Assembly: GCA_963848295.1 (NCBI GenBank)
Contig: CAWKDB010000002.1
Location: 32,001 to 96,000, forward strand
Source: an uncultured delta proteobacterium
GTDB taxonomy: Bacteria > Myxococcota_A > Polyangia > Haliangiales > Haliangiaceae
Length of the DNA: 64,000 bases
Reading direction: 5' to 3'
A model generated the notes under the pieces. The model was not told where the DNA came from, did no database searches, and worked only from the letters and a program-made list of their open reading frames with translations. The translations under genes and the position numbers were made by a program. Below, piece after piece: positions 31,632 to 57,496 of the stretch. The stretch's first letter is position 1; every line of letters begins with the position of its first letter.

Positions 31632-31714
31632 GCGCGGGTGGTGGAATGGTAGACACGGGGGCCTTAAAAGCCCCTGCCCGAAAGGGCATGCGGGTTCGAG
31701 TCCCGCCCCGCGCA
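31632..31714 (+). tRNA. tRNA-Leu (anticodon TAA), long variable arm, CCA not encoded
   Basis: Acceptor GCGCGGG/CCCGCGC, D-arm GTGGAATGGTAGACAC, anticodon arm GGGGC-CTTAAAA-GCCCC, variable arm TGCCCGAAAGGGCA, T-arm GCGGG-TTCGAGT-CCCGC. Confidence 0.95.
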
Positions 31715-31715
31715 C
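31695..31715 (+). repeat. attL core (3' end of tRNA-Leu)
   Basis: Identical to 43706-43726. Confidence 0.9.
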
Positions 31716-31760
31716 GAAGGATGCGAGCGATTCCGTCGACGTAACGGAGTCACCCCGCTC

Positions 31761-31782
31761 TGTTGGCACACCGTTGCCACGG
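31761..31782 (+). promoter_or_regulatory. Putative integrase arm-type sites, left end
   Basis: TGTTGGCACAC-CGTTGCCACGG tandem, matching TGTTGCCACGG x2 at 43544-43565. Confidence 0.6.
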
Positions 31783-33022
31783 AGTCGCGCTTGCCGCGGA
31801 GTCGCATGTCGACCGCGCGCGCTGGCGGCGCGATGACGACGCGAGCTCCGAGCTGAGCGACGACTCGCCGGCTCGGGTCGAGCAGCTCGGCGCCCGCCGT
31901 GAGGACGTCGTCGGGGATCGGCCACGCGTGCGCTTCGGCGTGGTGGCAGTAGCGGAGCGTCATCCCCATGTCGGCGTGCCCGAGCCACGCCTGCAACCGG
32001 AGCGGGTTCACGCCGAGCAGCGCGAGGTGCGTCGCGTACGTGTGCCGAAGGCAGTGCCAGCTCCGCTCGGTCAGGCCGGCGATGCGGCACACGCGGTAGA
32101 TGCCGTGCTTCGACAGCGCCTCGCTCATGGGCTCGCTTGCGTCGTCGGCGACCACGCGGCCGGTGCGGATGCGCGCGAGCTGGCGGAGGTGAGCCGACGA
32201 GCCGCGGAGTCATCGGCACCGTGCGCGGCTTGCCCGACTTCGGGACGCCTTCGACGCCGCGCCGCAGGTGCCGCGCGACCGTGATGGTGCCCGGCGACGA
32301 GGTCGAGGTCGCGCCACTCGAGCGCGAGCATCTCGCCGACGCGGAGCCCGCAGTCGGCCACGAGCAGCACCGCCGTCCCCCAGGGCTCGCCGTGGTGCAG
32401 CGCCGCGCCGACCATGCGGCCGAGCTCGTCGAAGTCGAGCACCTCGATGGGTGGCGGCGGTGGGTTCTTGACCTTGATGCGGGGCGCCCGCTCGATGACG
32501 CCCACGTCCTCCGCGTAGCGCATGGCCGTGCTGAGCGTGGCGAGAATGTTCGCGCGGGTCTTCGCCGACAGCAGGCCGGTGCGCCCGCGCCTCGTCAGGA
32601 GCTCGGCGCGGAGAGCGTTCACGGCGCCGAGGTCGATCTCGTCGAGGCGCAGCGGGCCGAGCGTCGGCTCGAGCCACGACCTCGAATATGTACCGCTTCG
32701 ACTCGAGGGTCGCGACCCGGTTCTCACCCTCGCCGCGACATCGCTCGGTCCAGTAGCGACCGCGGTAGTCCTCGACGGCGCTCGTGACGCCGCCGCGGAA
32801 CCACGCGGAGAGCGTCGGGTGTGTCCGCGCGCGCCAGCGAGCCCGGCGCGTACCTCTCGACCACCGCCTCGGCGAGCGTTCGCTCGACGTGCTCGCGCTC
32901 GGCGACCTCGGCCGCGCGCTTCGTGTTGACGTTCGGCGTGCCCGAGATGCGCAGCTTGCTGCCGTCGGGCAGCTTGACCACCACGCGGTAGCGCCACACG
33001 CCGCGCGCGTCGCGATACGCGC

Positions 33023-33763
33023 TCACTTCGACCCCCTGGCCGCGCGCATCTTCGACGGCGACGACGCTCCGCGCGGCGACTTGCCCGCCGCGAGCGCGCG
33101 CTCGCGCGTCCACAGCGAGTACTCCCCCTCGCGCGATGGCGACACAGCGACCACGCCTGAGGCGGGGTCGGCGAGTAAAGCCATAATTGCGCGGCGAGCG
33201 CCGCGCCAGTCGAGGGACCGTCCGAGGCGCCCGCCTGCCCATGCGGCAAGCCCCTTCCACGTCAGCGGCTTGTCCGCGCTCGACAACACCTCGATGAACG
33301 CTTGCGTCATCACCTTGCGTGCCTCGAGCTCGCGCGCAATCGATTCCCGTGCAGTGCGACGAGCTTTTTGCTGGGCCCGAGACAGAGCCTGGAAGTCGGC
33401 GGCCTCGGGGCATGCCCCTACGAGAACGTGCAGGAGCGCGTGGGTCGTCCCGGGATCGGCATTCTTGAACCCCGTCACCACGTCCTCGTAGTCGCGAAGG
33501 ACCTCCCAGACTCCAAGTGCGCCATCGCGGCGCGTGTAGACGTACTCGCGCTCGTCCACGCCACGAGTGCCGATGCCGAAGTGGACGCCCGCAGGATCGA
33601 ACGTCAGGTCGAGCGCGGTGAGCGCGAGGACAACATCCTCGCTGTGGCTGAGCCACCGATGAAAAGTAATCGGCGCGTCGCTCGCCGCGAGGTACGTCGG
33701 CACGTCGTCGCCTGACATCTCGACGACGGGCTTCCGCTTCGTGGTGGTCTTTTTCTGCGGCAT
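33023..33763 (-). CDS. Hypothetical element protein, coupled to integrase start
   Basis: MPQKKTTTKRKPVVEMSGDD.. 246 aa open frame; TGA overlaps the integrase GTG. Confidence 0.55.
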   Translation of the reverse strand: MPQKKTTTKRKPVVEMSGDDVPTYLAASDAPITFHRWLSHSEDVVLALTALDLTFDPAGVHFGIGTRGVDEREYVYTRRDGALGVWEVLRDYEDVVTGFKNADPGTTHALLHVLVGACPEAADFQALSRAQQKARRTARESIARELEARKVMTQAFIEVLSSADKPLTWKGLAAWAGGRLGRSLDWRGARRAIMALLADPASGVVAVSPSREGEYSLWTRERALAAGKSPRGASSPSKMRAARGSK

Positions 33764-33991
33764 CACGACTTCGACCCCGCCGAGCTCGAGCGCTTCGCCG
33801 CGCGCACGAGCACCTCGCGCGCCCATTGCATCGTGGCGAGGCCGGCATCGCGCGCGGCGCGGTGAAAGAGGTCGCGCTCGGCCGCGGTGAGGCGCATCGA
33901 GAGCACGACGTCGGACGCGTGCTCGGCGCGTGGCTTGCGACCGGCCCCGGTTCGGGGGCCGCCGTGCTTCGGGGTGCGGTGACTTGGGCAT
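33760..33991 (-). pseudogene. Small DNA-binding protein: GGxRxGAGRKP motif plus ribbon-helix-helix, frameshifted
   Basis: Removing one C in a CCCC run gives MPKSPHPKHGGPRTGAGRKPRAEHASDVVLSMRLTAAERDLFHRAARDAGLATMQWAREVLVRAA. Confidence 0.6.
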
Positions 33992-34188
33992 GTCCACGAG
34001 AGTCTACCTTTCGTAGTTCGGTTTCAAGAGATAACGATCGACGGAATCAAGGTCGACGAACGACCTCGAGCTCAGGCGTGCGCCGACTCGACTGCAACCG
34101 GCTCGAGGTCAACCACATCGACTGCCACACGACACCCGCACTACTAGTGCGGGGCAGGCAGTGCTGTGTACATGCAGCCGGGTAGATG

Positions 34189-36486
34189 TCAGGCAGCAGT
34201 CGGGCCGGTGTCGGTCGACGCCGGAGCTGACAGTGCCCAAAGGTCACGGCTTCCGCAGCGCCTACTGCGGCGAGCGCGAGGTCTCGGCGTCCACAGCAGG
34301 GATAGCGAGCGCGCCCCGCGGTCGGGTGGCACCTCGACGACGCTCGAGCCGGGGTCTGCGAGCAGTCGCAGCGACCGCCGCGCGCGAGACGTCGCGGCCC
34401 ACACGCCGCCGCGATGCGTGCGGATGCTCACGCGCCACCGATTGAGCGAGCTCGCCGCTGGCGGCGAGCGTGGCTTCGCGCCGCTCGCCGTCGAGCTCCG
34501 CGGCGGTCGACTGGCGAGCTTCGCCTTCCGCCCCTCGCGCACCTCTCGCGCCGGCCTCGCCGCGCCGTCGACCGTCCAGCGGCCGGTGCGTCCGCAGTAG
34601 CCCGCCGGGATGACGACGTCGCCGGTCCCCATGCGGCAGCTTGCCGAGCGAGAGCTCGACTGCACACGTTCCGTCGGGAGCGCTCGGGGCCGTGACCGCC
34701 GATGGCGACGGTGAGGTGCGCGGCGCGCTCGATGGCCGCGGACTCCGCGCCGGTGTCGGTGGTGTCGGCGCCGACGGCCTCATCTGCGCGCAGCGACCGC
34801 GACGCCGCGCGCGACGTCTGAGACACGGCGACGGCGAGCGACGCGGTGCGACCTGGCACCACCGAGCGACGTGCCTCGATGACGTCGGACGACGCGCGCC
34901 CGCTGGTCGTGCGCCGAGTCGACGGCATGATCTGCACGTAGTCGACGACGACGAGCATCGGTTCGCCCGGGTGGCGCTCGACGAGCTGCGCCCGCGCCGA
35001 CTCGAGGCCATCGAGCGTTGCGTCCTCGCCATCAATCACGACGAGCCGCTCGGGCAGCGCCGAGAGCATCGTCACGTCATCGACCTGACCGCGGATCACT
35101 TCGCGGCCACGAGTGGCCTCGGCTCATGCCGACGACGCGCGCGTCGACGAAGCGCGCCGGCAACTCGCGCGATAGGTAGAGCGCCGGGCCCAGATTGTTG
35201 GCGTGCGAGCATGCGAGCTGCGCAGCGAGCGACGACTTGCCCGAGCCCGTCGAGCCGATGACGCACGACGAGCTCGCCGCTTGGGACCCGGGCGAGCTCG
35301 CCGGGGTCGAGCTCGAGCGTGACCCACGGCTCGCGCGCCCGGGCGCGAATCTCGGCGACGCGCTCTGCAGGCGTCCGCAGCCTCGACCGGCTCGCGCTCG
35401 TCTCGACTTCGGCGTGCCTAGGGCGAGGGCCTCGCGCACGAGCGCGGCGCTGCTTCGATGCGCCGCGCTCACGGTTGCCACCCCGCGCAGTCGAGCGTCC
35501 GTTCAGATCTTTGTGTGGTGCCGAAGTTCGACGAGCTCGGACACTCGCGGTCGAGCACGAGGCCGTGCCGGCTACGAGCTGCGGCGCAGCGCCGCGTGCG
35601 GCACCCGCCGCGCCACTTCCGCCGGGGCCGTCGTCATGCGGCGACGATGAGGAGCTCGCCGATGCTCAAGTCACGGACGATGCGGCGCAACGCATCGACG
35701 ACGTCGGCCATGCGGCTTCGCATCGTTCGCGCCGAGCACGCGACCGCGTGCGGCCAGAGCACGCGCAAGCGGTCAGCGTGTCGAACAGGCCCTCGGCGCA
35801 GGATGACAGTGTCGGACGAGCTCGGTTACGTCTGCACACGCCCGACGAGCGAGCTTCGAGTCGTGCCGCCACCGGGCAGCACGCGCACCTTGGTCTGGTC
35901 GGCGGCCGCGCGCGAGCACGCGGTACACGACCATCTGACGAGCTCGCCGTCGAAGCCATGCAACCGCACGGCGACATCGCCGCACGCGCGGAAGCGCACG
36001 ACGCGTCCGCAGATCGGCAGCGCCGGTTCAAGACCGCGACGGCGCGAGGTACGTCCTCGCCCTTCGGGTGTCGCCACTGGAACGCGCCCCACGCTCGCTC
36101 GGCGCTCGCGCGCCGCGCGAGCACAGCATCGAGGTCGACCGCCCGCTGGCTTCGCCACGCGTCGAGCGGGTTGCTTCGGCGACTTCGCGCCGAGACGCGC
36201 GATGCTCTCCGGCGACCGCGAGCACCTTCAGAAAGTCGCGGCGGCCCGTCGAGGCCTAGGTACCCCGCGATGAGCGAGAGAACGTCGCTGCCTTCTCGCC
36301 GCACGCGTGGCAGTGCCACTCTCCGCTCGCCCGATTCACGGCGACCGAGGCGCGTCGATGCTCTACGCCGCTCGGGCACGACTTCGCGCGGAGCTCGTCG
36401 CTGCCGTCGTACGGAATGTTGAACGCGTCGAGCACGAGCGACGCGTGACCGACGAGCGCGCGCTTCACTTCGACGGCGCGCATCAT
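34189..36486 (-). pseudogene. Primase-helicase (Zn finger + TOPRIM + DnaB-like helicase), multiply frameshifted; ends approximate
   Basis: CP..H..SVAVN...WHCHACG zinc finger; EGLFDTL TOPRIM; GSTGSGKSS Walker A, YLSREL, VVVDYVQI Walker B, AESAAIERAAHL. Confidence 0.75.
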
Positions 36487-36793
36487 GGTGCACCTCGTCG
36501 GCCCGCGAGCTTCGGCGGCGTCCACTCGCCGCGCGCCCACGCCTCAATGTTCGCAGGCGAGCCGAGCCAGCGACGGCCAACGCGGCGGAGTACGCCGTCG
36601 TTCTCGAGCTGCGCGATAACTCGAGCGGAGCACCGTGACGCGCGACATGCCCGAGCACGTTCGCGACGAACGGCCGAGGACATCGAGCGCAGCTTGGTGG
36701 GTGTGCTTCGAGCTCGCCGAGCGCGGGCTGGCGTTGGTCGCGAATCACGACCGCGCTCCGCTCCGCGCGCGCGTGGGTTCGCCGCTCGGTCAA
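36483..36793 (-). pseudogene. Small HTH protein (AlpA/Xis-like), frameshifted
   Basis: Reconstructed ..VANVLGMSRVTVLR..IAQLENDGVLRRVGRRWLGSPANIEAWARGEW; stop overlaps primase start. Confidence 0.45.
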
Positions 36794-37031
36794 CTAGCGA
36801 TGCGCTTCGGCGGCGATGAGCTGCTCGAGCTCTCCGCTGCGTAGCTCGAGGACGCGCTCGAGCGCGCGCACAGTGCTCTGGTGCGGCGTGAGTCGGTTCT
36901 CTTCGATGCGGGCGACGGTGGTGCTCGACGTCGCGGGCGCGACTCGCGAGGTCAACGCGCCGCCAGCCGCGGGCTACGGCGATGCTCGCGGACGGCGTCC
37001 CGAGCGACAATGATGGTTTCTTGGTGCCCAT
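36794..37031 (-). pseudogene. XRE/Cro-family HTH regulator, frameshifted
   Basis: With three single-base corrections reads MGTKKPSLSLGDAVREHRRSRGWRRVDLASRAATSSTTVARIEENRLTPHQSTVRALERVLEL. Confidence 0.6.
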
Positions 37032-37146
37032 GTTGACGCTACTCTCGGTTGGGAATTCGTCTCCAGTGGCCGTCAAAATCAAAATCCCAATCCCTCGACC
37101 GCGCTCGCTTGAGCGCCGTCGCGCCGTCACCGACGACGGCCGAGGT

Positions 37147-37734
37147 ATGGGTCCGCTGCGACGCGAGGACTACGCACAGTGGTTCGCGGAGTACCCGCAG
37201 CTGCGCCAGCTCGCGTCTCTCGCGACGCGGGCGTTCGACATCGCTGATCGCGAGTCGGTGGACCTACGTAACGACCGACGCGGCCGACCGCGCGACCGAC
37301 ACCCAGAGGTCGCCGGTTTCGTACGCTGGGCGGTCGAACTAGTCGGCCCCAAAGTTCTGGCGCTAACGCTCGTCGTCGGTGGTGTGCTCGATGACGGCGC
37401 CGGACGATACCTGGCGGGTCAACTCTCGCCGCGAGACCGACGCGATTCGAGCAGGCCCGATAGCCGCACCGGCCTCCGGCAGCTTGCGATGCGGCTCGAG
37501 CAGATTGCGCGCGCTGCGCGCCGTCGCGAAAAAGTGAGGCTGGTGATCGCTGCAGGAACCGATGCCCGCGGGCTGAACGACCACCACGGCGACACGCGTT
37601 TTCCACGACCGCGAATCGCCGCTGCCTCGAAGGAGTTCCTTAGCCGATGCCGCTCAGCTGCAAGAGCGCGCGCGTCTCGCCAGCTGTCAATTCGCGTGCG
37701 TTCACGCGCTGGCCGCGTGCCATCGCGGCGATGA
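37147..37734 (+). CDS. Hypothetical protein divergent from the XRE gene
   Basis: MGPLRREDYAQWFAEYPQLRQL.. open frame after an AT-richer intergenic stretch; 3' end uncertain. Confidence 0.35.
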   Translation: MGPLRREDYAQWFAEYPQLRQLASLATRAFDIADRESVDLRNDRRGRPRDRHPEVAGFVRWAVELVGPKVLALTLVVGGVLDDGAGRYLAGQLSPRDRRDSSRPDSRTGLRQLAMRLEQIARAARRREKVRLVIAAGTDARGLNDHHGDTRFPRPRIAAASKEFLSRCRSAARARASRQLSIRVRSRAGRVPSRR

Positions 37735-39021
37735 ACAGCGCGCGCAACCTGTCGGTCCGCGTGCGACTTGCGCGCTCGCGATGCGAGACGCCTCCATCGC
37801 TGCGGGGCGTATCGAGCGGCCGACCGACATCGCGGAACCGCAGGTCGAGAGCATCGTCTCCGAGACCGAGGCCGCCGAGTCGTGCGCGCACTTCGTCGGG
37901 CGTAGCGGTGACCGCGTTGATGCTGACCCGCCGCCAGTTCGGCCGCGCGCCGCTCTCGCACCTCGCGTTCGTATCGGGCTTGCTTGCGGCTCGAAGCGAT
38001 TCGCGAGGCGGCGCGACCGGGCGGCGTCGGGTTGACCGTGCGCCATCCCGATGACGCCCGGCATCTCCACGCCGGCCGCACGCGCGACGCGTTGCACGTC
38101 GTCGGCGGTGAGTTCAAATGCCGGCGGCATCCGCGGCGGTCGCGGTGCCGAAGGAGGCGCCGTCGGCTTCGTCGAAGCGGGCGCCGGAGCTGGCGCGGTC
38201 GGCTTCCGTGTCTTCGCTGCTCTCTGTTCCCGGTGGACGAGTCGCAGCAGCGGGTCCGTGGGTAAGGTGGGCATCGTCGTGGTCTTCCGTGATTGTGAGG
38301 TTGGTGTCGGACGTGAGCTGCGCATCGGCGGCGCGGCCCGCTCGTCGAGCGCGTGCTCGACCGCAGCGTTGCTCGGAAAAGTGCAGAGCATCTGTCGCTG
38401 CGCCACCGCGAGTACGCGCGGTTCCAGCCGGGCGGTCTCGTGCGCGCGATTTCTTGTCCGTCGACTCGAGCGCTCTGCGCCGAGCAGCAACGCGGCGACG
38501 CGGTCGGCGATGTCGCGGTCGCCGCGATCGAGCGCAGCATCGAGTTGTTGCACGTGGGCGGCGAAATAGCTGACCCATGCGGTCGCATCGAATCTTGTCG
38601 GGGATGCGCTGGCGTTGGCTGCTCACGCCGCACGCTCCACGAAGTGGTCGGCCTCGACGAGCAGCGCGTTCGCAAGTGCGATGACGAGTGCACGGTCCCG
38701 CATGGTCGTCAGCGAGAAGGCTTCAGCGTGAAGCCGGCGGGCACGGCGTCCGAGACCTTCGCGACGCCGACAGTGCGTTGATACGTCCCGCCGGCCGCCG
38801 ACGTCGGGCAACCGGCTTGCGAGGCGTAAGGAATCGAGTCCGGGACCATCGGCCATCTCGGGGCCGCGCCACCGTGCGAAGCCCGCGGTCCCGCCGAGCT
38901 TGAGCGCCTGGTTTCGCGGCGTCGCGTGGTTCACCGGCGAGCGCGGTGGGCTGGTGCCGGCTCGCGGCGCTTCGACCGAGGGCGAGTTGTGCGGAGCGTT
39001 GGTGGTTGACTTCGTGGACAT
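37640..39021 (-). other. Two or three frameshifted hypothetical genes transcribed divergently from terS/terL
   Basis: ATG 39021 (MSTKSTTNAP..), coupled GTG 38626, and MPTLPTDPLLRL.. fragments; no family recognised. Confidence 0.35.
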
Positions 39022-39075
39022 AGTCACAATTCTATTGCACCTGCAAGCCGATGTCAGCTGGTATCGTGATTTGTT

Positions 39076-39726
39076 ATGACGCCGAAGCCAGTCACGCCCG
39101 CCGAGCTCGCTCGACTCCGCGCCGCGTTCACGTCTCGCCGACCGTCGAGCCCGTCCGACTTCGCAGCGGTTGCCGCCGACGTCGGAGTGACCTCGGGGCA
39201 GGCCCGCCGCGCGTGGCTGTACGGTTGGGCCGCCGCAGGTATCGCGCCGCTCGAGCGCGAGCTCGGGTCCGCCGCCGCGGCGCAGCGCCAACTCGGCGTC
39301 GCCGTCGCCACCGCCGAGATGGTCGCCGACGAGTGCGTGCGACGCGCGGCCGAGCTCGGCGAGCACGTCGCCGGGCTCGTGCCGGTCGCGAAGCGACTGG
39401 TCGCGGCGCTCGTCGACGCGCCCGACCTCGCGCAGCTGGCTCCGTCGCTGGCGTTGTCGGCGCTGCGCCAGGTGACGAGCGTGCTCGGTCGCGCGGGCAA
39501 CGTCGCCGCCGACGCCGTCGAGCTGCAACGGCTGGTCGGCGGTCAGGCCGGTCGTATCGTCGCCGTGCAACACGGCGCATCGCCCGACACGATCGACATC
39601 GAGGCCGCGGCTCGCACGCTCGCCGGAACCCAGCGCGCGCTCGAGCGCGCGGCGAAGGCGCGAGCGCCCGCCGCGCCGGACGTCGTCGGGTCGACGGAGC
39701 CGACCGGAGACCCGCGTGTCAACTGA
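39076..39726 (+). CDS. Putative terminase small subunit-like protein
   Basis: N-terminal HTH-like FAAVAADVGVTSGQARRAW, helical body, overlaps the start of terL; call rests mainly on position. Confidence 0.45.
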   Translation: MTPKPVTPAELARLRAAFTSRRPSSPSDFAAVAADVGVTSGQARRAWLYGWAAAGIAPLERELGSAAAAQRQLGVAVATAEMVADECVRRAAELGEHVAGLVPVAKRLVAALVDAPDLAQLAPSLALSALRQVTSVLGRAGNVAADAVELQRLVGGQAGRIVAVQHGASPDTIDIEAAARTLAGTQRALERAAKARAPAAPDVVGSTEPTGDPRVN

Positions 39727-41148
39727 GCTCGCCGCCAACGTCGACGCGCAGCGGCGAGTGTGGGCGCAGCTCGCGAGCCGCGACTTCCCGACGTTCTGCG
39801 AATTCGTGCTCGAGGACGAGGCGGGCGGCGAGGTGACGCTCGCGCCGATGCACCTCGAGTGGTGCCGGCTCCTCGACGAGCATCCGCGACTTGTCATCTC
39901 GGCGCACATCGAATCGGCGAAGACATCGCTCGGCGTCGTCGCTCGCACGCTCTGGCTCCTCGGTCAGAACCCATCGGCGCGCATCGCCATCGTGTCGAAC
40001 ACGGCGACCATGGCGCAGAAGATTCTGCGCGATCGTCGCGAAGTACATCGTGGGCTCGACGCGGCTGCGCGAGGTGTTTCCGGCCATCGCGCCCGACTAC
40101 AACTCCTTGTGGCGAGCGAACGCGATCACCATCGCTCGCCCGACGTTCACGCGCGACCCGTCCGTGCAGGCGCTCGGCACCGACGGCGCGTTGCTTGGCA
40201 GCCGACTCGACGCCGCATTCCTCGACGACGTCGAGACGTACGCCTCGACCTGCACGGTCGAGGGCCGCGCGAAGGTCGCGGGGTGGGTGCGCTCGACGGT
40301 GCTGACTCGACTCGTCAGTGGCGGTCGCGTCGTCGTGCTCGGTCCCGCGTGGCACGGAGCCGACCTCCTGCACACGCTCGAGGCCGACGGATGGCCGACG
40401 TATCGCTACAGCGTGCAGGATGACGAGGGCCGGTCGCGCTGGCCCGAGCGGTGGCCGCTGGCGCGCATCGCCGCGAAGCGAGTCGAGCTCGGTCGTCGCG
40501 CCGCCGCGAACCAACTCGACGTGGTGCCGCTCGCCGAGGGCGGCAAGATTGACCCGGCGTGGGTCGACGCGGCGCTCGCTCGCGGAGCTCGGCGCCCGCT
40601 CTTGCCGTACGTGCACCAAGCGCCCGACGGGTGCAGCATCGTGTGCGGCGTCGACCTCGCCGTGGGTCAACAGAAGCACCACGACCGCACCGCCATCGCG
40701 ACCGTGTTCGTGCACCGCGACGGACACCGCGAGCTCGTCGCGATGGAGTCGGGGCGCTGGACTGCGCCCGACATCGTCAAGCGCATCCACGCCGTCAACG
40801 AACGGTTCCGCCCGGTGTGCATCCTCGTCGAGAGCAACGCGGCGCAGATGTACATCGTGCAGATGACGCGACAGCTGGCCTCGGTGCCGGTGCGCCCGTA
40901 CACGACCGGCGGTGGCACGCGGTCACTGCACTACGGCGTCGACGGCCTCTCCGTCGAGCTCGAGCGTGGGCAGTGGACGATTCGAGGAGGGCGACCCCGA
41001 GGTCGAGGGGCTCGCGCGCGAGGTCTGCTACTACGACCCGCGCGCTCACGTCGGCGACCGACTCGCAGCGCTCGTGCTCGCGCGCCACGCGGCCGAGCAG
41101 CGCGCGAACCGCGTCGAGTTCTTTCATCACGACTTCAGCGCACGGTAA
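39716..41148 (+). pseudogene. terL: Terminase large subunit, frameshifts near 40030 and 40985
   Basis: ISAHIESAKT Walker A-like, RIAIVSNT, GSRLDAAFLDDVET Walker B, GPAWHGADL, GVDLAVG..HDRTAI RNase H nuclease, VESNAAQ. Confidence 0.78.
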
Positions 41149-41662
41149 TACCTATGCGGTCGTGGTGGAACAGCTCACCGACTGGTCGACCGAATGGTTT
41201 GACCTTCAGGTGACGCAGCAACGCTTCTACGCGTCGGCGAAGGTCGAGTCTCGCGCCAGCTCCAAGGACCTCTGCGTCGGACCTCCAGGTTGTCGACTCT
41301 CGTGTGACCGCGATTGGGAGCGATGCACTTCGATGTTGGCGGTCAGGAATCGTGGCACCGCGTCGGAGACAGCCTCGCGCCGAAGGCAATCTGGTCCACT
41401 GCTTTCACGAACCGTGTTGGGCTCCAAGCGTTGAGATTGTCGAGAGGCCGCGGACCGGACGGCTCCCCGGCCAGGCTCTGTAACTGTGCGACCTTCCGAA
41501 ACATAGACGCACGGCGTGGCGTTCGACGTGAACCATGAAATTAGACGCCTGACAGACGCGGACACAGGGTACGTCGTGCGGACGATTAATGACCACTGGA
41601 CGCGTCTACTCGACGAGTCGAAGAACATGGCCGAGGACGTGCTAAAGAGGGCGTTACAATGA
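41149..41662 (+). pseudogene. 5'-truncated, frameshifted conserved hypothetical gene (first of cargo operon; possibly TIGR04255-like)
   Basis: WSTEWFDLQVTQQRF..MHFDVGGQESWHRVGDSLAPKAIW..VAFDVNHE..INDHWTRLLDESKNMAEDVL; no start codon after the terL stop. Confidence 0.5.
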
Positions 41663-42207
41663 GCCGTCAGTAGCGCTCAGCTTGCGTTCGACCTCACGAC
41701 GGCCGCAGACGCCGTGGTCGATGGGAGGCACTTCGTCGAGGGGGAAGGCGGACGACGCCTCCGCGAAGCGTGTGGAATCGGCTAAGCGCGTGGCCCGGAG
41801 AGCTCCCCCTTCGGAAATTCTTGCTCCAGAGACCGCCGCAGAAGACCGCCGCGATGAATCTGCCAGTCAGATTATTTTGCAGAGTTGGGAGTGCACGGTG
41901 CTGAGCGTCAGCGACGACGTGTTTGTGGCATCGCTCCGCTCGCTCCGGGATCCAACTGCCCCCGAGCTGGAAGCCGATATCCCTCGCGACGATGTGACGC
42001 CCGACGACCTCGAGCTACTCGAGCCGGGGCGGTGTTCTATGGAGCATTGGATACGAAACGCGGGGCGGACAGCGCCGTTGCGCGTCGCAACTCGCTTTTC
42101 GACGACTGCCGGCGTGGACCCAGCGCGACGTTGACCGTGTCCGAGATCGAGCGAGAAAGCTCTTCGCGGAGTTCGGGAAGCCCGACGATGGCACCACCCA
42201 GCGCTAA
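41659..42207 (+). pseudogene. Conserved hypothetical gene (second of cargo operon), frameshifted
   Basis: LQSWECTVLSVSDDVFVASL..EADIPRDDVTPDDLELLEPGAVFYWSIGY..FRRLPAWTQ; ATGA coupling upstream, 20-bp overlap downstream. Confidence 0.55.
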
Positions 42208-43263
42208 CGAACTCGAGGTCTCGATCTTCGGGCGAGGCGTCGGGGAGTGCATAGTTGTCCAGTCGGTGGCGGTAAGTGGGTCGTGATCGACTCTTGTACG
42301 AAGCCGGAAACGAACGAGCCCGTCGCGCTCGAATATCTGCGGTCGCTCGGGGTCGCCGTCGAGACCGACGTCGTTGCGCTCGTCGTCACGCACTGGCACG
42401 ACGACCACATCGCGGCGCAAGCAAGTTGCTCGAAGCATGTACGGCCGCGGAGTTCTTTTGCTCCGCGGCGTTGAATCGCGCCGAATTTTTTCAGCTCCTC
42501 GAGTCGGCTGGCCAATTGGTTCTTGCGGCTGGTTCCGGTTCGGGTGTCGACGAGATGGGGCGGGTCTTCTCGGTGCTGAGCGAGCGCAAGGCGCGCGGAG
42601 GGAAAGTCACGTCGCCAGAATATGCGCTCGCAAACAGGGTCATCTACCGACGCGCGAAGCTCGGAGAGGTTGCTGAGTGCACCATCGAAGCGCTGAGCCC
42701 GAGCAGCACCTCCCTGACGCGGGGGCTCCTGTCGTTCACGCCGGCAATCGGCTCGCCCAAAAAGACGATTCCGAACCCGGGCCCGAACGAGCTGTCGGTC
42801 GCGTTGCACGTGCAGCTCGGATTCGAACGCGGCTCTCCTCGGCGCCGACCTCGAGGTCGGCTCGTCCGACGATGTCGGCTGGCGTGCGGTCGTGCTGAAC
42901 GGCCGCCTGCCCGCAGGCAAGACCGCAATCGTGAAGGTTCCCCACCATGGCTCAAAAGGCGCAGACCATCCGCCGATGTGGGCGACGCTCGTCGGAAGCG
43001 ACCCGCACATCGGCGTGACGCCCTTCAACTCGTCGAGCCTCCCCCGGCCCGACGACATCGCCCGGCTTCGCACCCGCTCGCCGAACGTTTTCCACGCCTC
43101 CCCCAAGCAAGGGCGAAAGCTGAGGCTCGACAACACGAGCCAGAGAATCCTCGACGGTTTAAAGATTCGCGAGCGAGGGGGCTCGCTCGGCCATATTCGT
43201 TTCCGCGCCCCGGATGGGGGCGCTGCTACGTGCGAGCTCTTGGGCGCAGCCGAAGCGGCCTGA
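42188..43263 (+). pseudogene. ComEC/Rec2-like metallo-beta-lactamase-fold hydrolase, frameshifted
   Basis: ELEVSIFGRGVGECIV, WVVIDSC, THWHDDH, NELSVAL, LLGADLE, VKVPHHGS, TPF motifs across four frame segments. Confidence 0.75.
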
Positions 43264-43465
43264 CCGCCCCGGAAGCCACCTGCCGACGACTGGCGACGAA
43301 TGCCCGAAGGTCGCTCGCGAGCACGCGCACGACGTTGTTACCGCGGCCGAAGCGCACCGCGGGGAGCTCGCCGGCCCGCACGTGGCGGAGCACCGTCTCG
43401 GTGCAGCACGCGAGCGCGGCGGCCACCTCGCGCGGTGTCATGAGCTCGTCGCCGTCCATCGTCAT
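43226..43465 (-). CDS. xis: Excisionase-like HTH_17 protein
   Basis: ELMTPREVAAALACCTETVLRHVRAGELPAVRFG..VRVLASDLRAFV, next to attR. Confidence 0.8.
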   Translation of the reverse strand: MTMDGDELMTPREVAAALACCTETVLRHVRAGELPAVRFGRGNNVVRVLASDLRAFVASRRQVASGAVRPLRLRPRART

Positions 43466-43543
43466 CGAGCTTGAACCCGCCACCGAGCGCTCGTCCACCA
43501 CGGACGACCATGGGCGACCAGCGCCGCTTTTCGGAGCCCGGCC

Positions 43544-43637
43544 TGTTGCCACGGTGTTGCCACGGCGCGTTGTCGCGAGCTGTCGCGAAGCGTTTCGAGC
43601 TGTCGCGAAGGTCGACGAGGATTCGACGAGATTCGAG
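43544..43637 (+). promoter_or_regulatory. Putative arm-type and Xis-binding repeat array near attR
   Basis: TGTTGCCACGG x2 (43544-43565); TGTCGCGA at 43571, 43581 and 43601 (10-bp phasing). Confidence 0.6.
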
Positions 43638-43705
43638 AGCGGCGGCGCGAGCTTCGACTACATCTCGTGCGTCTTCGACGAGATGGCCGCGCCGCCGTTT
43701 GCTAT

Positions 43706-43726
43706 TTCGAGTCCCGCCCCGCGCAC
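43706..43726 (+). repeat. attR core (duplicated tRNA-Leu 3' end)
   Basis: Identical to 31695-31715. Confidence 0.9.
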
Positions 43727-45861: not shown

Positions 45862-46733
45862 GATATGCCGCGTTCGCGCTCGTGCTGGCGTCGAGCGCCG
45901 CGCACGCCGACGATCCCGTCGCGCTCGTCGCGCGCGGCGACGAGCTCGCCAAGCAAGGGGAGTACACGCGTGCGATCGAGCTGTTCAAGCAGGCCGACGC
46001 GCAGCACCCCAGCGCCGCGAACGCGTGCCGCATCGGGCTTGCGTACACCCGGCGCGAGCTATGGCCTCAGGCCGAGCTGTTCCTCGCGCGCTGCCACGCG
46101 CGTGCGACCGCGGCCGATCCGACGCCGGACTGGTTCGACTCGGCGCGCGCGCAGCTCGCGCAGAAGCTCGCCGAGGTCGACGCGGCGCCGATCGACGTGC
46201 GCATCGCGCCTCCAGTCGCCGGCGCGCGCATGCGGATCTCGGGGTTCCCGCCCGACGAGGCGTTCGAGCCACAGGCGATCCACCTCGGACCCGGAACGTA
46301 CACGATCACCGCGACCGCGCCGGGACGCATGCCCGGGCAAGTCGCGGTCACCGTCGCAGCGAAGACCCCACAGATCGTGACGCTCGCGCTCGCCGAGCCG
46401 CCGCCCCCGCCACCGAGCGCGGCCCAGCGCGCGAGCACGTACGTGCTGTACGGAGCAGCCGGCGCGGCGCTCGTCGGCGTCGCGTTTCACGCGCTCGCAT
46501 CGCACGAGCGCGACGAGCTGACCGCCGCACAGGCCGCCGACAACCCGGTCGCGTGGGATCACCATGCCTCGACCTTCGAGCGCGACCGCGACGTCGCGAT
46601 CGCCGGTTACGGCGTTGCCCTTGCGGCGATCATCACCGGCCTCGTGCTTCGCCACCATCGGCACGAGTGGCCGAGCGTCGAGCCGGCGCCGATGCAAGGT
46701 GGTGCCGCCGTGTGGTTGCGCTGGGACCGATGA
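45858..46733 (+). CDS. Secreted TPR + PEGA-like domain protein with C-terminal TM helices
   Basis: Signal peptide AAHA-DD; TPR GEYTRAIELFKQA; LGPGTYTITATAPG; ATGA coupling. Confidence 0.7.
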   Translation: MRYAAFALVLASSAAHADDPVALVARGDELAKQGEYTRAIELFKQADAQHPSAANACRIGLAYTRRELWPQAELFLARCHARATAADPTPDWFDSARAQLAQKLAEVDAAPIDVRIAPPVAGARMRISGFPPDEAFEPQAIHLGPGTYTITATAPGRMPGQVAVTVAAKTPQIVTLALAEPPPPPPSAAQRASTYVLYGAAGAALVGVAFHALASHERDELTAAQAADNPVAWDHHASTFERDRDVAIAGYGVALAAIITGLVLRHHRHEWPSVEPAPMQGGAAVWLRWDR

Positions 46734-46779
46734 CGATCGGGCGATCGGGTTATCGGCGCCGCAGCCGCAACGCGGTTGC

Positions 46780-47352
46780 TCACGTCGCGAGACCGTCCCA
46801 TTCCTCGGGTTTGACGAACACAACGCCCCGGGCCCCGCTCCTCACGACGGACGCCTTCACTCGCTCGTCGACGACGATGAGCAGGTCGAATTCGCTGAGC
46901 CTGAACAGGCTCGGCTCGCCCGGCACCGGATCTTTCAGGACCAGCTCGTCGATCGCCGAAACGAGGGTCTCGCTGCTGTCAAAAGGCACGTAGTTGCACC
47001 TCTCGCGATCCATCGCTGCAGTCCGAGCGAGCACGTTGGCCGCAAAGTAGGGTCTGAGAGTGCCGCTCGCCGAGTGCGAAACGACAGCGTCGTAGTAATC
47101 GATCTTGTCGACGCCGGCCTGCTCCAGCGCGCTCCGCAGCAAAGGCGAGACCAGCGGAATGTTCGCTGCGGGCCGCAGGTAATCGCACCACTCGAATGGA
47201 TCGGCGCCGTCGATCGTGAAGCGAAGGACGGGCATGGTGCCGGAGAAGCGCTCGCCATCCACCCAGCTGAGATTGTCCAGCGGCGTCCGCAGCACGACGG
47301 TGGAGTACAGCTCGCGAGCCGAGAACAGCAAGTAGCGTGGGCGGTTGCTCAT
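46780..47352 (-). CDS. Imm11/DUF1629-like immunity-family protein
   Basis: DYL...PLVSPLLRSALEQAGVDKIDYY..YFAANVL..DRERC..LFRLSE..IVVDERVK..GARGVVF. Confidence 0.6.
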   Translation of the reverse strand: MSNRPRYLLFSARELYSTVVLRTPLDNLSWVDGERFSGTMPVLRFTIDGADPFEWCDYLRPAANIPLVSPLLRSALEQAGVDKIDYYDAVVSHSASGTLRPYFAANVLARTAAMDRERCNYVPFDSSETLVSAIDELVLKDPVPGEPSLFRLSEFDLLIVVDERVKASVVRSGARGVVFVKPEEWDGLAT

Positions 47353-47386
47353 GGTGCGATCCGACTTCGGAAACGTCTCTTGACGA

Positions 47387-48766
47387 CTATGGCTCGTCGC
47401 GCGACCGACTCATGTCGAGCCGCAGTCGGACGACGGTCTCGACCTGTGCGGTCCCCGGCATCAGGTCGAACGGCTCGATCGCATCGGCGGAGTACCCGTG
47501 ACCAGCGAGCGCGGCGAGGTCACGAGCGAGCGACTCGGGCGCACAGCTGACGTAGATCACCGTCGGGGCAGCGAGCTCCGCGACGAGCGCGGCGCCGCCA
47601 TCGCCGAGACCTTTGCGCGGCGGATCGACGACGATGACATCGACCGATCCAGCGAGCTGGGCGCACAGCTCGACCGGCGCTGCTCCGGCATCGGCCGCAA
47701 CCGCGATGATCGGCAGCTGGGCTCGCTCGGCGGCGCGGCGCAGCTGAGCCACCGCTTCGCGATCGATCTCGACCGCGGTGACCCTCGCGCCGCGCGTCGC
47801 GAGGTGTAGCCCGATGCCACCGAGGCCGGCGTAGAGCTCGACGACGTGCGGTGTCGGCGGCGCGGCCTCCAGCGCGAGCTCCGCGACCCGCGCGTACATC
47901 GCCTCGGCTTGCGCGTGATTGACCTGGACGAACTCCGACGCGCCGACCTCGACGGTGACGCCCGCGATGTCGAGCGCGAGGTGGCCCTGGCCGAGCAAGA
48001 CCTGGGCGCTCGACCCCGAAGGCACGATCGCGCCGTCGCGGCGATCGTTGACGATCGCGATCACACCGCGCACCGCCGCGTGACGAGCGAGCGCGTTCGC
48101 GACCCGCTCCAGCTTGGTCCGAGGCACGCCGGACGCGACGACGAGCGTGACCATGACGTCGCTGCCGACCTCGCGCACGATCGCGTAGCGCAGCTCGCCC
48201 GAGCGTGCGCGCTCGTCGTACGCGATCAGCTGCGCGCGTTCGGCGGCGCCGCGGATCCAAGTCGCGACCTCATCGATGATCGGCGCGACGACGCGACAGC
48301 CGAGCGTGTCGACGACGAGATGACTGCGCGGCGCATAGGCTCCGAGCACGAGCTGGCCGCCGCTGGTGCCGACGACGTACTTGCCCTTGTTGCGGTAGCC
48401 GATGATCTGCGGCGAGGGTCGGACCGCGCCGACCACCTCGAGCGGAACGCCGAGCTCGCGCGCGACTCGAGCGCGTTTGATCGCGAGTTGTGCGGGATAG
48501 GCGAGGTGCTGCCACGCGCAACCGCCACAACGTCCGAACGCCGGACACGCGGGTGCGACGCGATCGGGGCTCGCCGGTCCGGTGCGGCGTACGACGCGCG
48601 CCCAGGCCTCGGCGCGATGCGGGCTCGCGTGATCGATCGCGACGTCGGCGGCTTCACCGGGCAACAGATCGACCACGTGGACCTCGACGCCGCCGTCCGC
48701 GGTGCCGACCCCGCAGCCGGCATCGTCGAGCGCGACCGCGACCACGGAAACGCGAGCGGCGGTCAC
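47387..48766 (-). CDS. rlmD: 23S rRNA (uracil-C5)-methyltransferase
   Basis: TRAM-like N-terminus, CPAFGRCGGCAWQH Fe-S motif, FVQVN, ELYAGLGGIG, VDPPRKG, YVSC, QVET. Confidence 0.88.
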   Translation of the reverse strand: MTAARVSVVAVALDDAGCGVGTADGGVEVHVVDLLPGEAADVAIDHASPHRAEAWARVVRRTGPASPDRVAPACPAFGRCGGCAWQHLAYPAQLAIKRARVARELGVPLEVVGAVRPSPQIIGYRNKGKYVVGTSGGQLVLGAYAPRSHLVVDTLGCRVVAPIIDEVATWIRGAAERAQLIAYDERARSGELRYAIVREVGSDVMVTLVVASGVPRTKLERVANALARHAAVRGVIAIVNDRRDGAIVPSGSSAQVLLGQGHLALDIAGVTVEVGASEFVQVNHAQAEAMYARVAELALEAAPPTPHVVELYAGLGGIGLHLATRGARVTAVEIDREAVAQLRRAAERAQLPIIAVAADAGAAPVELCAQLAGSVDVIVVDPPRKGLGDGGAALVAELAAPTVIYVSCAPESLARDLAALAGHGYSADAIEPFDLMPGTAQVETVVRLRLDMSRSRDEP

Positions 48767-48818
48767 CGCGTCGAGTCTAGCAGCCGGGCAGCCCACCGAT
48801 CTGCTAGCCTGCCCGGCG

Positions 48819-49904
<1,086 letters not shown>

Positions 49905-49905
49905 A

Positions 49906-50867
49906 TCAGTGACCCATCATCCCCATGCCGCCCATCTGCGACATGAGGCTCTTGATCTGCGCCTCGCTCATCTTGACCTTGCCGTGGAGGTGATCGCCGT
50001 CGCGGGTCACGTCGATGCCTTCGAGCACGCCCTTGATGTCCGGCGGCAAGCTGTCCGCCATCTTCTTGGCCTGGGCGAGGCCATCGACGACCTTCGACGC
50101 CATCTCCGGGTCCTTGACCTGGACGGTGACATCCATCGCGAGGCCGCCGTCGATGTCGATCGAGCCCCACATGTCGCCGACCTTATCGGCGATCGGGGTG
50201 TTGTTCGCCGAGCCGGCGAACCATAGCGTCTTCGAGCGATCGACCTTCGCGATCATGTCCTGAAGCTTCTTGTCGTCGGCGGCGTTCGACTTCGCGAACC
50301 CGCGGCGTCGGCCTCGAGCTCGGCGCGGCCGACCTTCGAGAACTCCGGCGCGGCCGAGATCGTGAAGCCCTGGCGCGTGTAGAGCGCTCCGTTCGCGAGC
50401 TTGAGGTAGCCCTGGGTGACGGTCCCCATCGCGTTCGGGATGTCGATCCCGATGAACTTGTTGTCGGGATCGACGGTCGCCTTGAAGCTCGCCTTCGCGG
50501 CGCAATCGGCGACCTGCTTGATCTCCAGGCCCTTCATGACGATCGCGAGCTCGACCTCGGCGTGAATCTTGAACGTGCCGGCGATCTCCACGCCCTTGAG
50601 GCCGACGAAGCACTCCGACCACGCCTTGATGCCGGGCGAAATGCTGTCGGCCATCTGCATCGCGGCGGCGCCGAAGCTCGACGACATGAAGTTCTGCAGC
50701 TTCATGTAGTTTCCGCCGAACGCGCCGTCGCCGGGCGGCAGCGACTTGAACAGCTCGACATCGGCTGCGGCCATCGGTCCCGAGCTCGAGCTCGAGGACT
50801 TTTCACAGCCGGCAAGAGGGGCTGCAACTGCGAGGAGGGCGACGCAGAACACGGAGCGAAGGTTCAT
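49906..50867 (-). CDS. Hypothetical lipoprotein, frameshift near 50300
   Basis: Lipobox LAGC; ORFs 50253-50867 and 49906-50622 join at ..LEADAAG/FAKSNAADDKKL. Confidence 0.65.
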
Positions 50868-50936
50868 GGGGGCCTGGTGCTAACTCGGGGAACGCCGAGG
50901 CGCAAGAACCATGACGCGCCATCGGGCGCGACCGTC

Positions 50937-53900
50937 TCATGACACCAGCGCGACCACCTCGGGCAGGGCGGCGTAGGTCGCGCGCCAGGTCGGATCCGGA
51001 TGCGCGGCGAGAATCGCGAGCTTGCGGTCGACCTCGCCCCGGCCACGGGCTTTGACCACGCGGCTGCGATCGAGGGCGCCGGCTCGCACGAGGACCTCGA
51101 CACATGCGGCGTAGACCTCTTCCTCGGAGCTCTCGAGGTGGCGTTGCACTTCGAGCAGCGCGAGCGCGCGGTGGACGAGCTGACCCGCTGCGGCGATCGG
51201 GCCGCCTTTCTTGACGAGCGCGAGCGGCCTGGCGGGCGAGCCCTTGGATCTCGTAGCCGACGAGCGTCGCCTGTTGCGCGACCGCGACGCCTTCGCCGGC
51301 ATCGCGCACGGCGCCGGTGAGGTCGCCGCGGCGGAGGTTTGCGCCGGCGCGCGTGATCAGCGCGTTCGCTTCGAGATAGCGCGCGCCGAGCCGCCGCGCC
51401 TCGGCCAGCGCTTCGTCGATCATCGCGATCCCGCCGGGGAGGCCGCGCCTCGCGTCGCAGGCGCCCGCGTAGATCAGGCAGTCGGCGCGACTCCAGCGCG
51501 AGGCGGTGCGACCGAACAGCTCGAGCGCGTCGCCGAACATCGCGGCGGCAGGCTCGTACAACCCGACGTGATGCAGCACGATGCCGGCGACCGACAGCGC
51601 CTCGCCTTCGCGGACGCGATCGCCGTAGCGCCGGCACAGCTCGAGCGAGCGCTGCGCCGACGTCATCGCGGCCGGGTAGTTGCCGAGGCACATCTCGATG
51701 ATCGCGACGTGGTTCTGGACGATGCGCTCGAGCCACGGGTCACCGGTCTTCTCGATCCGCGCGATCACCGGGCGGTAGGCGTCGCGCGCTTGCTCGTAGT
51801 GCGCGCGCATCAAGTGGATCCGGCCGCGCCCGACCATCGCCTGCATCTCGTCGGCGACCGCTCCCTCTTGGGCGAACAGCTCGCGCGCCGCGCTGACCAT
51901 GACGAGCGCTTCGTCGAACCGGCCGAGGCGCTCGAGGACTTCGCCGCGCAACCGCAGCGCCTCGCCGCGCTGCCGCGGATTCTCGGCGACGAGCGCGAAG
52001 TCCTCGGCGACCACGGTCGCGACGCTCGCGCCGGTGTAGTCGCCAAAGCCGATCAGCCGCTGCGCGCGACGCAAGGCGACGTCGGCGAGGCGGTGAGCGT
52101 CGCCTTCGCACAGCCGCTGGAGCTCGTCGAGATCGCCGGCATCGGCCGCGATGTCGCCGCGCAGGCGATGGGCATCGTCGCGACCGGCGAGCGCTTCGCG
52201 GCGGCGCGCGCGCGACGTCGGGGTCGGCGGCACGACGCCGAGCTCGCGTTCGAGCGCGAGCGTGCGGGTGAAGCACGCGATCGCGGCTTCGGCGTCCGAG
52301 GCGGTCAGCGCGAGCTTGCCGGCGCGCAGCCAGAACGCGGCGGCCCCCGCCGGATCGCCGCCGCGCTCGAGGTGCTCCGCGATCACCGCCGGCGGTTCGT
52401 CGCGCCCGGCGAAGAACCGTGACGACAGCAACCGGCCGAGGCGCGCGTGAGCCTCGCGCTGCGCTCGCAGCGGCAGCGCGTCGTAGACCACGTCGCGCAC
52501 GAGCCCGCGCGCGAACGCGAGCTCGTCGTCGGCGCCGGCGCGGACGAGAAAGCCCGCCGCGACGAGCTCGTCGAGCCAGCTCGCGTCGCTGTCGGTGACC
52601 GCACCGACGAGCTCCTCGAGCAAGCGCGCGCGCACGCGACCGCCCATCACCGCCGCGAGCCTCAGCGCGTGCTTGCCGGCCTGGGGCAGGCGATCGACGC
52701 GCGCGGCGATCACGTCGCGTGCGGTCGCCGGCACCTTGTCGGCCGCGCTCCCCGCGTCGCGCACCGCTTGGGCGAGCTCCTCGGCGAACAGCGGGTTGCC
52801 GCCGCCGCGGGCGATCACGGCGGCGACGTTGAGCGGCGTCGCGGCGTCGCCGAGCCGGTCCGAGATCAACGCGCGCAGATCGGGACCGGCGAGGTCACCG
52901 AGCGCGATCACCGCATCGACCGCAGGTGGCGGCGGCCCGTCGGGGCGCGCGGTCAACACGAGCAGCTCGGCACCCTGCGCCGGCGCCGCGAGCGAATGGC
53001 GTAGCACCTCGAGACTCGCGCCGTCGGCGTAGTGAATGTCCTCGATGACCGTCAGCAACGGGCGAGCCTGCCCGGGTCCGGGCCCCGAGGCCGCGCTGCG
53101 GAAGGTCGCGAACCCCGCGGCGATCCGCGGCCGCATGTCCGCGATCTCCGGTGCACCGACGCCGAACCCGTCGCGTAGCTCCATCCCGCGATCGACGTCG
53201 GTCGCGGCCGCGCGCGCGCGTTCGTCGGGGACGCCGGCCTCTTGCATCAGGTGTTGCAACCGCCGGACGAGCAACGCACGTGCACCACGGCCCCGCGCCG
53301 GCGGTAACCCGAGCCCGGCTTGATAGAGGTCGATCACGAGCGCGAACGGCGCGTGATGGCTCGCCGGATTTGCGGCGGTGCGGATCACGCGCGGCGGCAC
53401 GGGCGCGGCGCCGCGGCGCGCGATCAGCTCGGTGACGAGCCGCGACTTGCCGATCCCGGCCGCGCCGGTGACGAGCACGGTCAACCGGCGCCCGGCCGCG
53501 ACCGCGCGCTGATACCAGACGTCGAGCTCGGCGAGCTGCGCCGTGCGCCCGACGAACGCGCCGGCGCGCTCGAGCGAGGCGCGCTCGGCGTCCTCGGGAG
53601 AACGCGTGCCGACGACCTCGGTGACCTTGCTGCGTCGAGCGATCCGGCGCGGCGCGGCGACCTCGCGGAGCTCGAACATGCCGCTCGTCACTCGCCCGGC
53701 CGGTCCGACAAACATCGGGCGATCCGGCGCCGCCTCTCTCGCGAGCGCGCGCGCTTCGTCGGACGCGTCGGCTGGAATGCGGGGCGCGCCGGCTTCGCTC
53801 GCGACCGCGACACCGGTGCGGGCGCCGACTCGCAGCGTCGGCCCGCCGGCACCGACCTCGGTGCCCTGATCGCGGGTCATCGCCGCGGCATCGAGCGCCC

Positions 53901-55704: not shown

Positions 55705-55733
55705 TTGGCTGATCAGGGTAGCATGCGATGTAG

Positions 55734-56447: not shown

Positions 56448-56489
56448 GTCCCGGTCACCTGCGGTCGGGTCCCGGCCGGCCCGGCAACG

Positions 56490-57383: not shown

Positions 57384-57496
57384 GATCTACATCATATCAG
57401 GCAGATAGCCAGGAATCATCCGCTGCGGACCACGCATTGACCGGGGGCGTAAATGTCCTTGCCGCGACGCGGCTTGTCGGTGCACGGTCTCGGTCG

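Follow-up and report, generated by a model that had tools for sequence, protein, structure and literature searches.

Phage-inducible chromosomal islands (PICIs) borrow the large terminase (TerL) of a helper phage, and capsid-forming PICIs (cf-PICIs) bring a TerL together with a head of their own, as these classes are set out in the sections of de Sousa et al. drawn on here (PMC10085698); there, SatelliteFinder models PICIs by five core components and TerL is specific to cf-PICIs. We describe here a 12,011-bp island that encodes a TerL and has no detected head gene, in a 64,000-nucleotide stretch (hereafter the window; positions 32,001 to 96,000 of contig CAWKDB010000002.1, assembly GCA_963848295.1) from an uncultured delta proteobacterium of the Haliangiaceae. 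The island is apparently an undescribed PICI-like satellite family that, judged from its genes, belongs to neither PICIs nor cf-PICIs as defined, and by analogy it likely works as a capsid pirate of the PICI type. Its length is the spacing between two exact 21-bp att copies, the left of which overlaps the 3' end of tRNA-Leu(TAA), and the core has no third copy across the 7.78-Mb, 85%-complete host assembly; the exact duplication reported in a first-pass annotation of the bare sequence is thus genome-unique. The features on which the argument turns are as follows.

31632..31715, plus strand: tRNA-Leu(TAA), the integration target (ARAGORN)
31695..31715, plus strand: left copy of the att core, 21 bp (exact repeat, genome-unique)
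37640..38292, minus strand: candidate scaffold mimic of a three-repeat family, about 5 frameshifts (homology to P0037 and a phage-scaffold scoring matrix)
39076..39726, plus strand: putative small terminase, intact, 216 aa (profile, tblastn and fold model)
39716..41148, plus strand: large terminase, 2 frameshifts, near 40028 and 40990 (phrog_38)
43706..43726, plus strand: right copy of the att core, 21 bp (exact repeat of the left copy)

All 125 stop-to-stop segments of at least 60 aa in the window were compared with Pfam and PHROGs. The matches are to a tyrosine integrase (in two frames), a primase Zn-finger, AAA_25 (weakly), TerL, a metallo-beta-lactamase (MBL) fold and an HTH_17 excisionase, and none of the segments matches a capsid, portal, tail or holin family, in agreement with the first-pass reading that such genes are lacking. 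Profiles of the portal, head morphogenesis gene, scaffold and capsid of the related phage family described below likewise find nothing in the window or the assembly. The minus strand carries, in order, an XRE-like gene, a small helix-turn-helix (HTH) gene, a primase, a DnaB-like helicase, a ribbon-helix-helix (RHH)-like gene, an open reading frame (ORF) without assignment and the tyrosine integrase; the 216-aa ORF, TerL and low-GC cargo lie on the plus strand, with a minus-strand excisionase at the far end. The integrase, divergent TerS-like and TerL pair, cargo and excisionase proposed earlier are all present, the TerS-like assignment being a likely one and the others following from family matches.

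Compared with PICIs, the island has att-specific integration with its own integrase and excisionase, a primase-replicase module, and no portal, tail or holin genes. The regulation module, an AlpA, MerR or Stl homolog in PICIs, corresponds to an XRE-like fragment (E 0.0016) with no AlpA match, among frameshifted genes; the small terminase (TerS) to a positional homolog with an HTH and hairpin model and no significant match to a TerS family or fold; and the capsid-morphogenesis factor to a scaffold-tail repeat protein with no match to a known morphogenesis family. PICIs and Staphylococcus aureus pathogenicity islands (SaPIs), as presented in PMC10085698, resemble it in size, tRNA att site, integrase, candidate regulators, primase-helicase and TerS-like gene, and also in a predicted capsid-morphogenesis factor and the lack of portal, tail and holin, and differ in that the island encodes its own phrog_38 TerL where a PICI uses that of its helper, resides in a myxobacterial-type host and has as morphogenesis factor a three-repeat protein without a Pfam family. 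With cf-PICIs it shares a putative TerS and a TerL of its own and a PICI-like left part, but neither the 125 window segments nor the related loci yield a capsid, portal, head-tail adaptor or connector, so that by comparison with the cf-PICIs of the same source it would steal heads and not only tails. Nor is TerL followed, as in a complete prophage, by portal, head morphogenesis gene, scaffold and capsid. Because confirmed or candidate counterparts of all five PICI core functions are present, we regard the island as a PICI-like variant with an added TerL; the earlier statement that it fits neither class holds for both definitions as written, but it does not lie outside both.

Other described elements come close in part. 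NitKor-E1 of Ca. Nitrosopumilus koreensis is also integrated and carries TerS, TerL and a tyrosine integrase and no other virion gene (Krupovic et al. 2019, PMC6563490), but it is a single archaeal case, read as a probable relic, for which the passages of that report devoted to it propose no helper or scaffold mimic. EPIPs (PMC12822802) and marine VEIMEs (PMC9618062) are small satellites with TerS, as the island would be, and a scaffolding protein is listed for EPIPs; they differ in that no TerL is reported in the portions of those papers considered here, and EPIPs carry tape-measure and head-tail genes. The literature searched, which took in few subscription journals and no supplements, yielded no satellite with TerL but without portal and capsid, and no tandem scaffold-tail protein. 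The suggestion of an undescribed satellite family is supported, and such an island would be packaged into helper capsids.

The lineage of TerL is the first line of evidence. The window protein matches phrog_38 in two frames (E 3e-32 and 1e-17) and is identical to homolog P0002 at 249 of 474 positions. TerL homologs with 34-53% identity served as seeds for scans of IMG/VR, genomes and metagenomes, and the majority of the relatives are tailed phages, on contigs of up to 118 kb. In a FastTree phylogeny of 199 sequences, the window TerL falls in a 19-member clade (support 0.998) with no member from IMG/VR, and the window fragment used as a query finds no IMG/VR locus. IQ-TREE (LG+G4, fast search, 86 sequences, 484 columns) separates 15 clade TerLs, the window's included, from 68 family members and three outgroups with an SH-aLRT of 99.9; that run did not include four near-duplicate clade rows, 13 distant TerLs, or any non-clade row that fell outside 430-700 aa or shared more than 60% identity with a retained row. 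The clade TerLs are mostly intact ORFs with 43-59% identity to P0002, and the clade is portal-less and sister to uncultured phages that have a portal after TerL. Among dereplicated loci (up to L185 only) with at least 5 kb downstream of TerL, a portal is present in 64 of 65 non-clade loci and in none of three clade loci; with 2.5 kb downstream, the counts are 84 of 88 and none of four.

The clade loci themselves are small islands that have an integrase or resolvase and no portal, and not the full-size prophages that the first-pass annotation had asked about. PHROG scans of called genes and long ORFs in L094, L095, L096, L104, L106 and L148 find no portal, capsid or tail gene; recombinases, transposases, methylases and primases are found, and the only head- or tail-type matches are TerS-type HTH proteins. 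Recombinases, transposases or defence-type cargo are carried by L094, L096, L104, L106 and L148, cargo directly follows TerL in L094 and L095, and L104 starts at a tRNA-Phe and integrase and is cut off by the end of its contig after 15 kb. In L094, two insertion sequence (IS) elements lie between the scaffold-mimic genes and terS-terL (L094:5900-7980), and its TerL has a C-terminal frameshift. One candidate relative, G407/L223, was rejected as a full prophage outside the clade. Family TerLs outside the clade with no portal detected nearby also occur in L225/L246 (G662), L229/L247 (G773) and L230 (G046), beside IS, type I restriction-modification (R-M) or recombinase genes, and are possibly further independent capsid-less lineages.

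The second line of evidence is the repeat protein. We collected 80 capsid-gene loci of the phage family and took the ORF upstream of the capsid as the scaffold from its position; its C-terminus is a conserved 20-residue motif (e.g. FDARKATPEQVRERLAARGL). A position-specific scoring matrix was built from 60 phage scaffold C-termini only, after four of 64 were dropped (three wrong ORFs and one insertion). In the window it scores 16.7 at 37921 (INAVTATPDEVRARLGGLGL) and 14.0 at 37705, which rank 2 and 5 among the 12.0 million six-frame windows of the genome. Matches occur in six of six distinct clade loci with enough flank (two in the window, three in L094, one in L096, two in L104, one in L105/106 and two in L148/149), those of L094 scoring up to 30.8 (IDARRLSSEDYERRLAQLGL), and in none of 18 control loci or three clade fragments under 2.7 kb. 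The window protein is itself identical to P0037 at 105 of 197 positions (53%; score 364 against a shuffle maximum of 62) and, in frameshift-aware alignment, homologous to an L094 ORF, with relatives in L096, L104, L106 and L148; BLASTP of a single window frame against the L094 protein was not significant.

Searching 1.84 billion representatives with a profile recovered 87 proteins (clusters) of this repeat family, of which 32 have three motif copies, 33 two, 16 one and six none, and the scaffold body is matched by none of the 87. Members are mostly 200-300 aa long and carry as many as three motifs, at intervals of about 65-75 aa, and no shared Pfam family was found among the 51 scanned. In the phages, exactly one copy is present in 60 of 64 upstream ORFs, and in 262 non-clade loci the motif is C-terminal in all 88 single-motif ORFs; the phage loci examined lack the repeat protein. 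The query profile contained the motif, so that its presence in the matches is partly circular, which does not apply to copy number, spacing or the missing scaffold body. Longest-contig sizes are identical for repeat protein P0053 and TerL P0005 and for P0046 and TerL P0002 (13,378 and 8,849 bp), which suggests linkage to the clade TerL; ten further members have no size match to a TerL contig. The family alignments were too variable for the locus search; low-sensitivity searches of IMG/VR with one member and with a DNA pattern, and of GenBank phages with one member, gave no match, and an Atlas search with the L094 protein gave no usable match.

The ORF at 37640-38292, the main unassigned one in the stretch 37147-39021 in which the first-pass annotation asked for hidden capsid, portal or scaffold folds, is not a capsid or portal but a member of an unnamed repeat family. 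The repetition of a 20-residue scaffold tail in an island protein suggests a scaffold mimic resembling CpmB of SaPI1 and points to the probable helper family. In SaPI1, a C-terminal motif common to CpmB and the 80alpha scaffold is shown to bind coat (Dearborn et al. 2017, PMC5644958); the island protein likewise has the C-terminal motif of the putative helper scaffold, with which it is predicted to bind coat. By the same account CpmB, of 72 aa, forms a dimer in which each chain has a single motif, unlike the longer island proteins, and the two motifs look unrelated, as judged without direct comparison. When the phage capsid protein was modelled in complex with a 40-residue piece of the L094 protein that carries the motif, the score was 0.00, which is uninformative either way.

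The third component is the 216-aa ORF, which shares ancestry with the phage family as TerL does. It matches the profile of the gene usually upstream of TerL in the phages (hidden Markov model E 8e-19, in a profile that may include two or three clade members), and one phage protein matches it directly (tblastn E 3e-4). Its model has an N-terminal three-helix unit with an HTH, followed by a long helical hairpin (pLDDT 88); the top BFVD fold match is a TerS, at a non-significant E of 0.036, and a VIA search with the model returned generic helical hairpins only. It is likely a small terminase, and the TerS proteins of the family are very divergent, being only 16-26% identical to that of the island. 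A TerS homolog with 58% identity on a 15.6-kb contig, P0022, was not located among 147 genomes, a match in G116 having looked spurious. L148 has an HTH-type gene downstream of terL (L148:4543-5136), and the usual upstream TerS-like gene was not detected there.

A single uncultured phage family thus appears to be the source of TerL, the TerS-like gene and the scaffold tail. In these phages, the gene that follows the scaffold has a predicted capsid fold, its model matching solved phage capsids (Foldseek E 3e-10), and the nearest cultured capsids are 26-31% identical. The capsid gene of this putative helper occurs in one of 138 genomes of the host's family, G156, which also holds a phage-type TerL. 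Searches for the family TerL gave 8 positives among 401 genomes of the class and 3 among 401 of the phylum, most of them falling outside the clade. In GTDB, G136 (L090), a genome deposited as 'Myxococcales bacterium', belongs to the same family as the host.

We consider it likely that the island is a phage satellite that packages its own DNA with its own TerS-TerL into procapsids of the helper family, with the repeat protein displacing the helper scaffold. When a phage of this one uncultured tailed-phage family infects, the island would excise and copy itself; its TerS would recognise island DNA, and its TerL, descended from that of the helper family, would dock on the portal of helper procapsids. 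The repeat protein would compete with the helper scaffold for coat, by analogy with CpmB, and three grips per chain would give avidity or curvature. The result would be capsids too small for the 40-110-kb helper genome, or else procapsids set aside for the island. TerL is likely carried because the family TerS is divergent, a matched TerS-TerL pair freeing the island from the terminase of any one helper. To the fuller proposal, of a satellite family in which a single-chain, trivalent copy of the scaffold tail out-competes the scaffold and sets capsid size while a private terminase fills the heads, we give about an even chance.

The state of this copy bears on how it is read. Frameshift-aware alignment to intact homologs, in answer to the call of the first-pass annotation to correct the frameshifts, places about 26 of them in five alignable genes, and they are real in the assembly: four in the integrase, about 7-9 in the primase (a low-confidence count), 6-8 in the helicase, five in the repeat protein and two in TerL, with none in the TerS-like gene. 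There are no stop codons at aligned positions, and one, at 35826, in an unaligned primase stretch. Neutral decay is assumed to bring 5-20 substitutions per indel, at which some 26 indels would be accompanied by 4-18 stops; local consensus error is likelier than decay, and the frameshifts are probably assembly error. Split genes are also seen in a 26.6-kb tRNA-Ala island of the same genome (L234-L235, G000:C10 4233000-4261000), and indel damage of the assembly may thus concentrate in islands.

Several observations weigh against the satellite interpretation. The copy is broken as assembled, and of the 81 columns conserved in the family its TerL departs at 15, among them the Walker A Gly, replaced by Ala (the 14 other clade members depart at 1-13 of the 81, median 5.5), so that the window copy may be inactive. 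The first repeat of the window protein fails to score, and both motif scores lie under the phage leave-one-out minimum of 17.7. The portal contrast depends on three or four clade loci, IMG/VR contigs are selected for structural genes, and both ends are defined in the window member alone among the clade. TerS identity is positional and architectural, with a fold search short of significance; the helper capsid gene was not found in the 85%-complete host assembly; and the repeat family occurs in only one of 401 class genomes searched.

An unlikely alternative is that the island serves anti-phage interference and is packaged inefficiently, if at all; the repeat protein would then poison assembly, the terminase would degrade or divert helper DNA or block portals, and transfer would follow another route. 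A multivalent scaffold tail could indeed cross-link coat subunits unproductively, and clade loci carry R-M, AAA-ATPase and TIGR04255 cargo, with ParB and resolvase genes in L106, but the intact clade TerLs keep their Walker A/B and nuclease columns and adjoin a TerS-like gene, and the att sites, excisionase and replication module that are kept make up the set needed by a packaged satellite. That the island is a deletion remnant of a prophage from the phage family, as NitKor-E1 was read in the account cited above, strikes us as very unlikely: the descent of TerL and the TerS-like gene, the frameshifts and a coding coverage that ranks among the lowest 1-2% when 216 windows of 12 kb from three contigs are compared would all fit, but the portal-less TerLs form one deep clade of mostly intact ORFs, the repeat protein is absent from the examined phage loci and has no scaffold body, and aligned stops number zero where 4-18 are expected under the assumed ratio. 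There is finally the very slim chance that the island resembles a cf-PICI and that its capsid and portal escaped detection through divergence or fragmentation. Frameshifts lower search sensitivity, and the ORFs 33023-33766, 37147-37731 and 38290-38700 have no family match; against this, none of the unassigned stretches has room for both a portal and a capsid gene, and neither kind of protein is matched by the long ORFs of relatives.

The remaining genes of the island are as follows.

31787..33026, minus strand: tyrosine integrase, 4 frameshifts, ends approximate (PF00589, phrog_1)
33023..33766, minus strand: ORF of about 245 aa (no Pfam, PHROG, NCBIfam or PADLOC match)
33764..33991, minus strand: small RHH/Arc-like candidate regulator, frameshifted (by eye from the six-frame translation; no family match)
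34258..35425 (aligned span), minus strand: DnaB-like helicase, 6-8 frameshifts (alignment to four homologs)
35472..36486, minus strand: Zn-finger/TOPRIM primase, frameshifted (phrog_2304/47)
36547..36797, minus strand: small DNA-binding ORF, candidate AlpA-like (no family match)
36794..37031, minus strand: XRE-type HTH regulator, frameshifted (weak HTH match and translation)
37147..37731, plus strand: ORF, 3' end uncertain (no family match)
38290..38700, minus strand: small ORF upstream of the scaffold mimic, frameshifted (similar position in L094)
41214..42204, plus strand: low-GC cargo ORF fragments (GC 0.63; no family match)
42208..43263, plus strand: MBL-fold hydrolase cargo, frameshifted (PF00753, phrog_28593)
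43226..43501, minus strand: excisionase-type HTH (TIGR01764 above cut-off; PF12728)

The integrase is identical to that of L288 at 165 of 389 positions. The helicase has 154-167 identities over 333-351 aa to four homologs (scores 482-567, shuffle maxima at most 69), one of which matches TIGR00665 below cut-off, and the primase aligns with scores of 102-195 (shuffle maxima at most 59). Both functions of the Zn-finger/TOPRIM/DnaB primase-helicase proposed in the first pass are thus present, but alignment shows two separate genes in related elements, and the window probably lacks one fused ORF. The regulators named with it fared unevenly, the XRE gene resting on its weak match and the RHH gene on inspection, and AlpA-like finding no family. 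An Atlas search with ORF 37147 gave a best score of 0.82, all leads falling under 0.9, and ORF 38290-38700 aligned to its L094 counterpart at 48, no better than shuffles (48). The MBL-fold cargo scores far under beta-lactamase cut-offs. Elsewhere in the window, ARAGORN calls a permuted tmRNA at 62345-63068, with an unconvincing tag.

Islands of the same layout with other TerL lineages occur in the genus. Five of 9.5-14.3 kb, one of which lies in the host genome, have att repeats at tRNAs; their scanned called genes have no portal or major capsid match, the 20-residue scaffold-tail motif is absent from them, and two of the five carry prohead-protease-like genes. A phrog_38 TerL is present in 29 of 91 genus genomes (a count that includes G088), with context examined for eight. 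A second terminase island in the same genome, at G000:C11 ~46420-58150 (L231:923-12652), is 11,679 bp long with a 51-bp att repeat at tRNA-Arg(CCT); it has an intact integrase, a primase, a helicase, a TerS-like gene, a TerL of a distant lineage and a 548-aa prohead-protease-like protein, and no portal or capsid match. Seven tRNA-linked islands of about 8-14 kb in related genomes (L238, L239, L240, L242, L248, L249 and L251) have other-lineage TerLs and no portal match, some with protease-like or weak virion- or tail-fibre-like genes, and att repeats were found for L238, L239, L240 and L242 only. L250 (G104:C323) has a similar module followed by tail-assembly genes and may be a larger or decayed prophage. 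Further tRNA islands of G000, 6-27 kb with 20-47 bp att repeats, lie at C10 3858023, 4260503 and 58703, C11 329647 and C1 123059, and L233 carries an integrase, a DnaB-like helicase and TIGR04255-like cargo without TerL.

The island family fills a missing combination, a TerL of its own without a head of its own, and the likely helper is identified from sequence, which is unusual for a satellite. It offers a concrete test, of a foreign terminase on a helper portal and of a multivalent scaffold tail setting capsid size, and suggests that terminase-only islands formerly taken for relics can be working satellites that virus catalogues have overlooked. If the proposal is true, one element could exploit an entire family of large myxobacterial phages, possibly virulent ones, which need have in common only their portal and coat interfaces.

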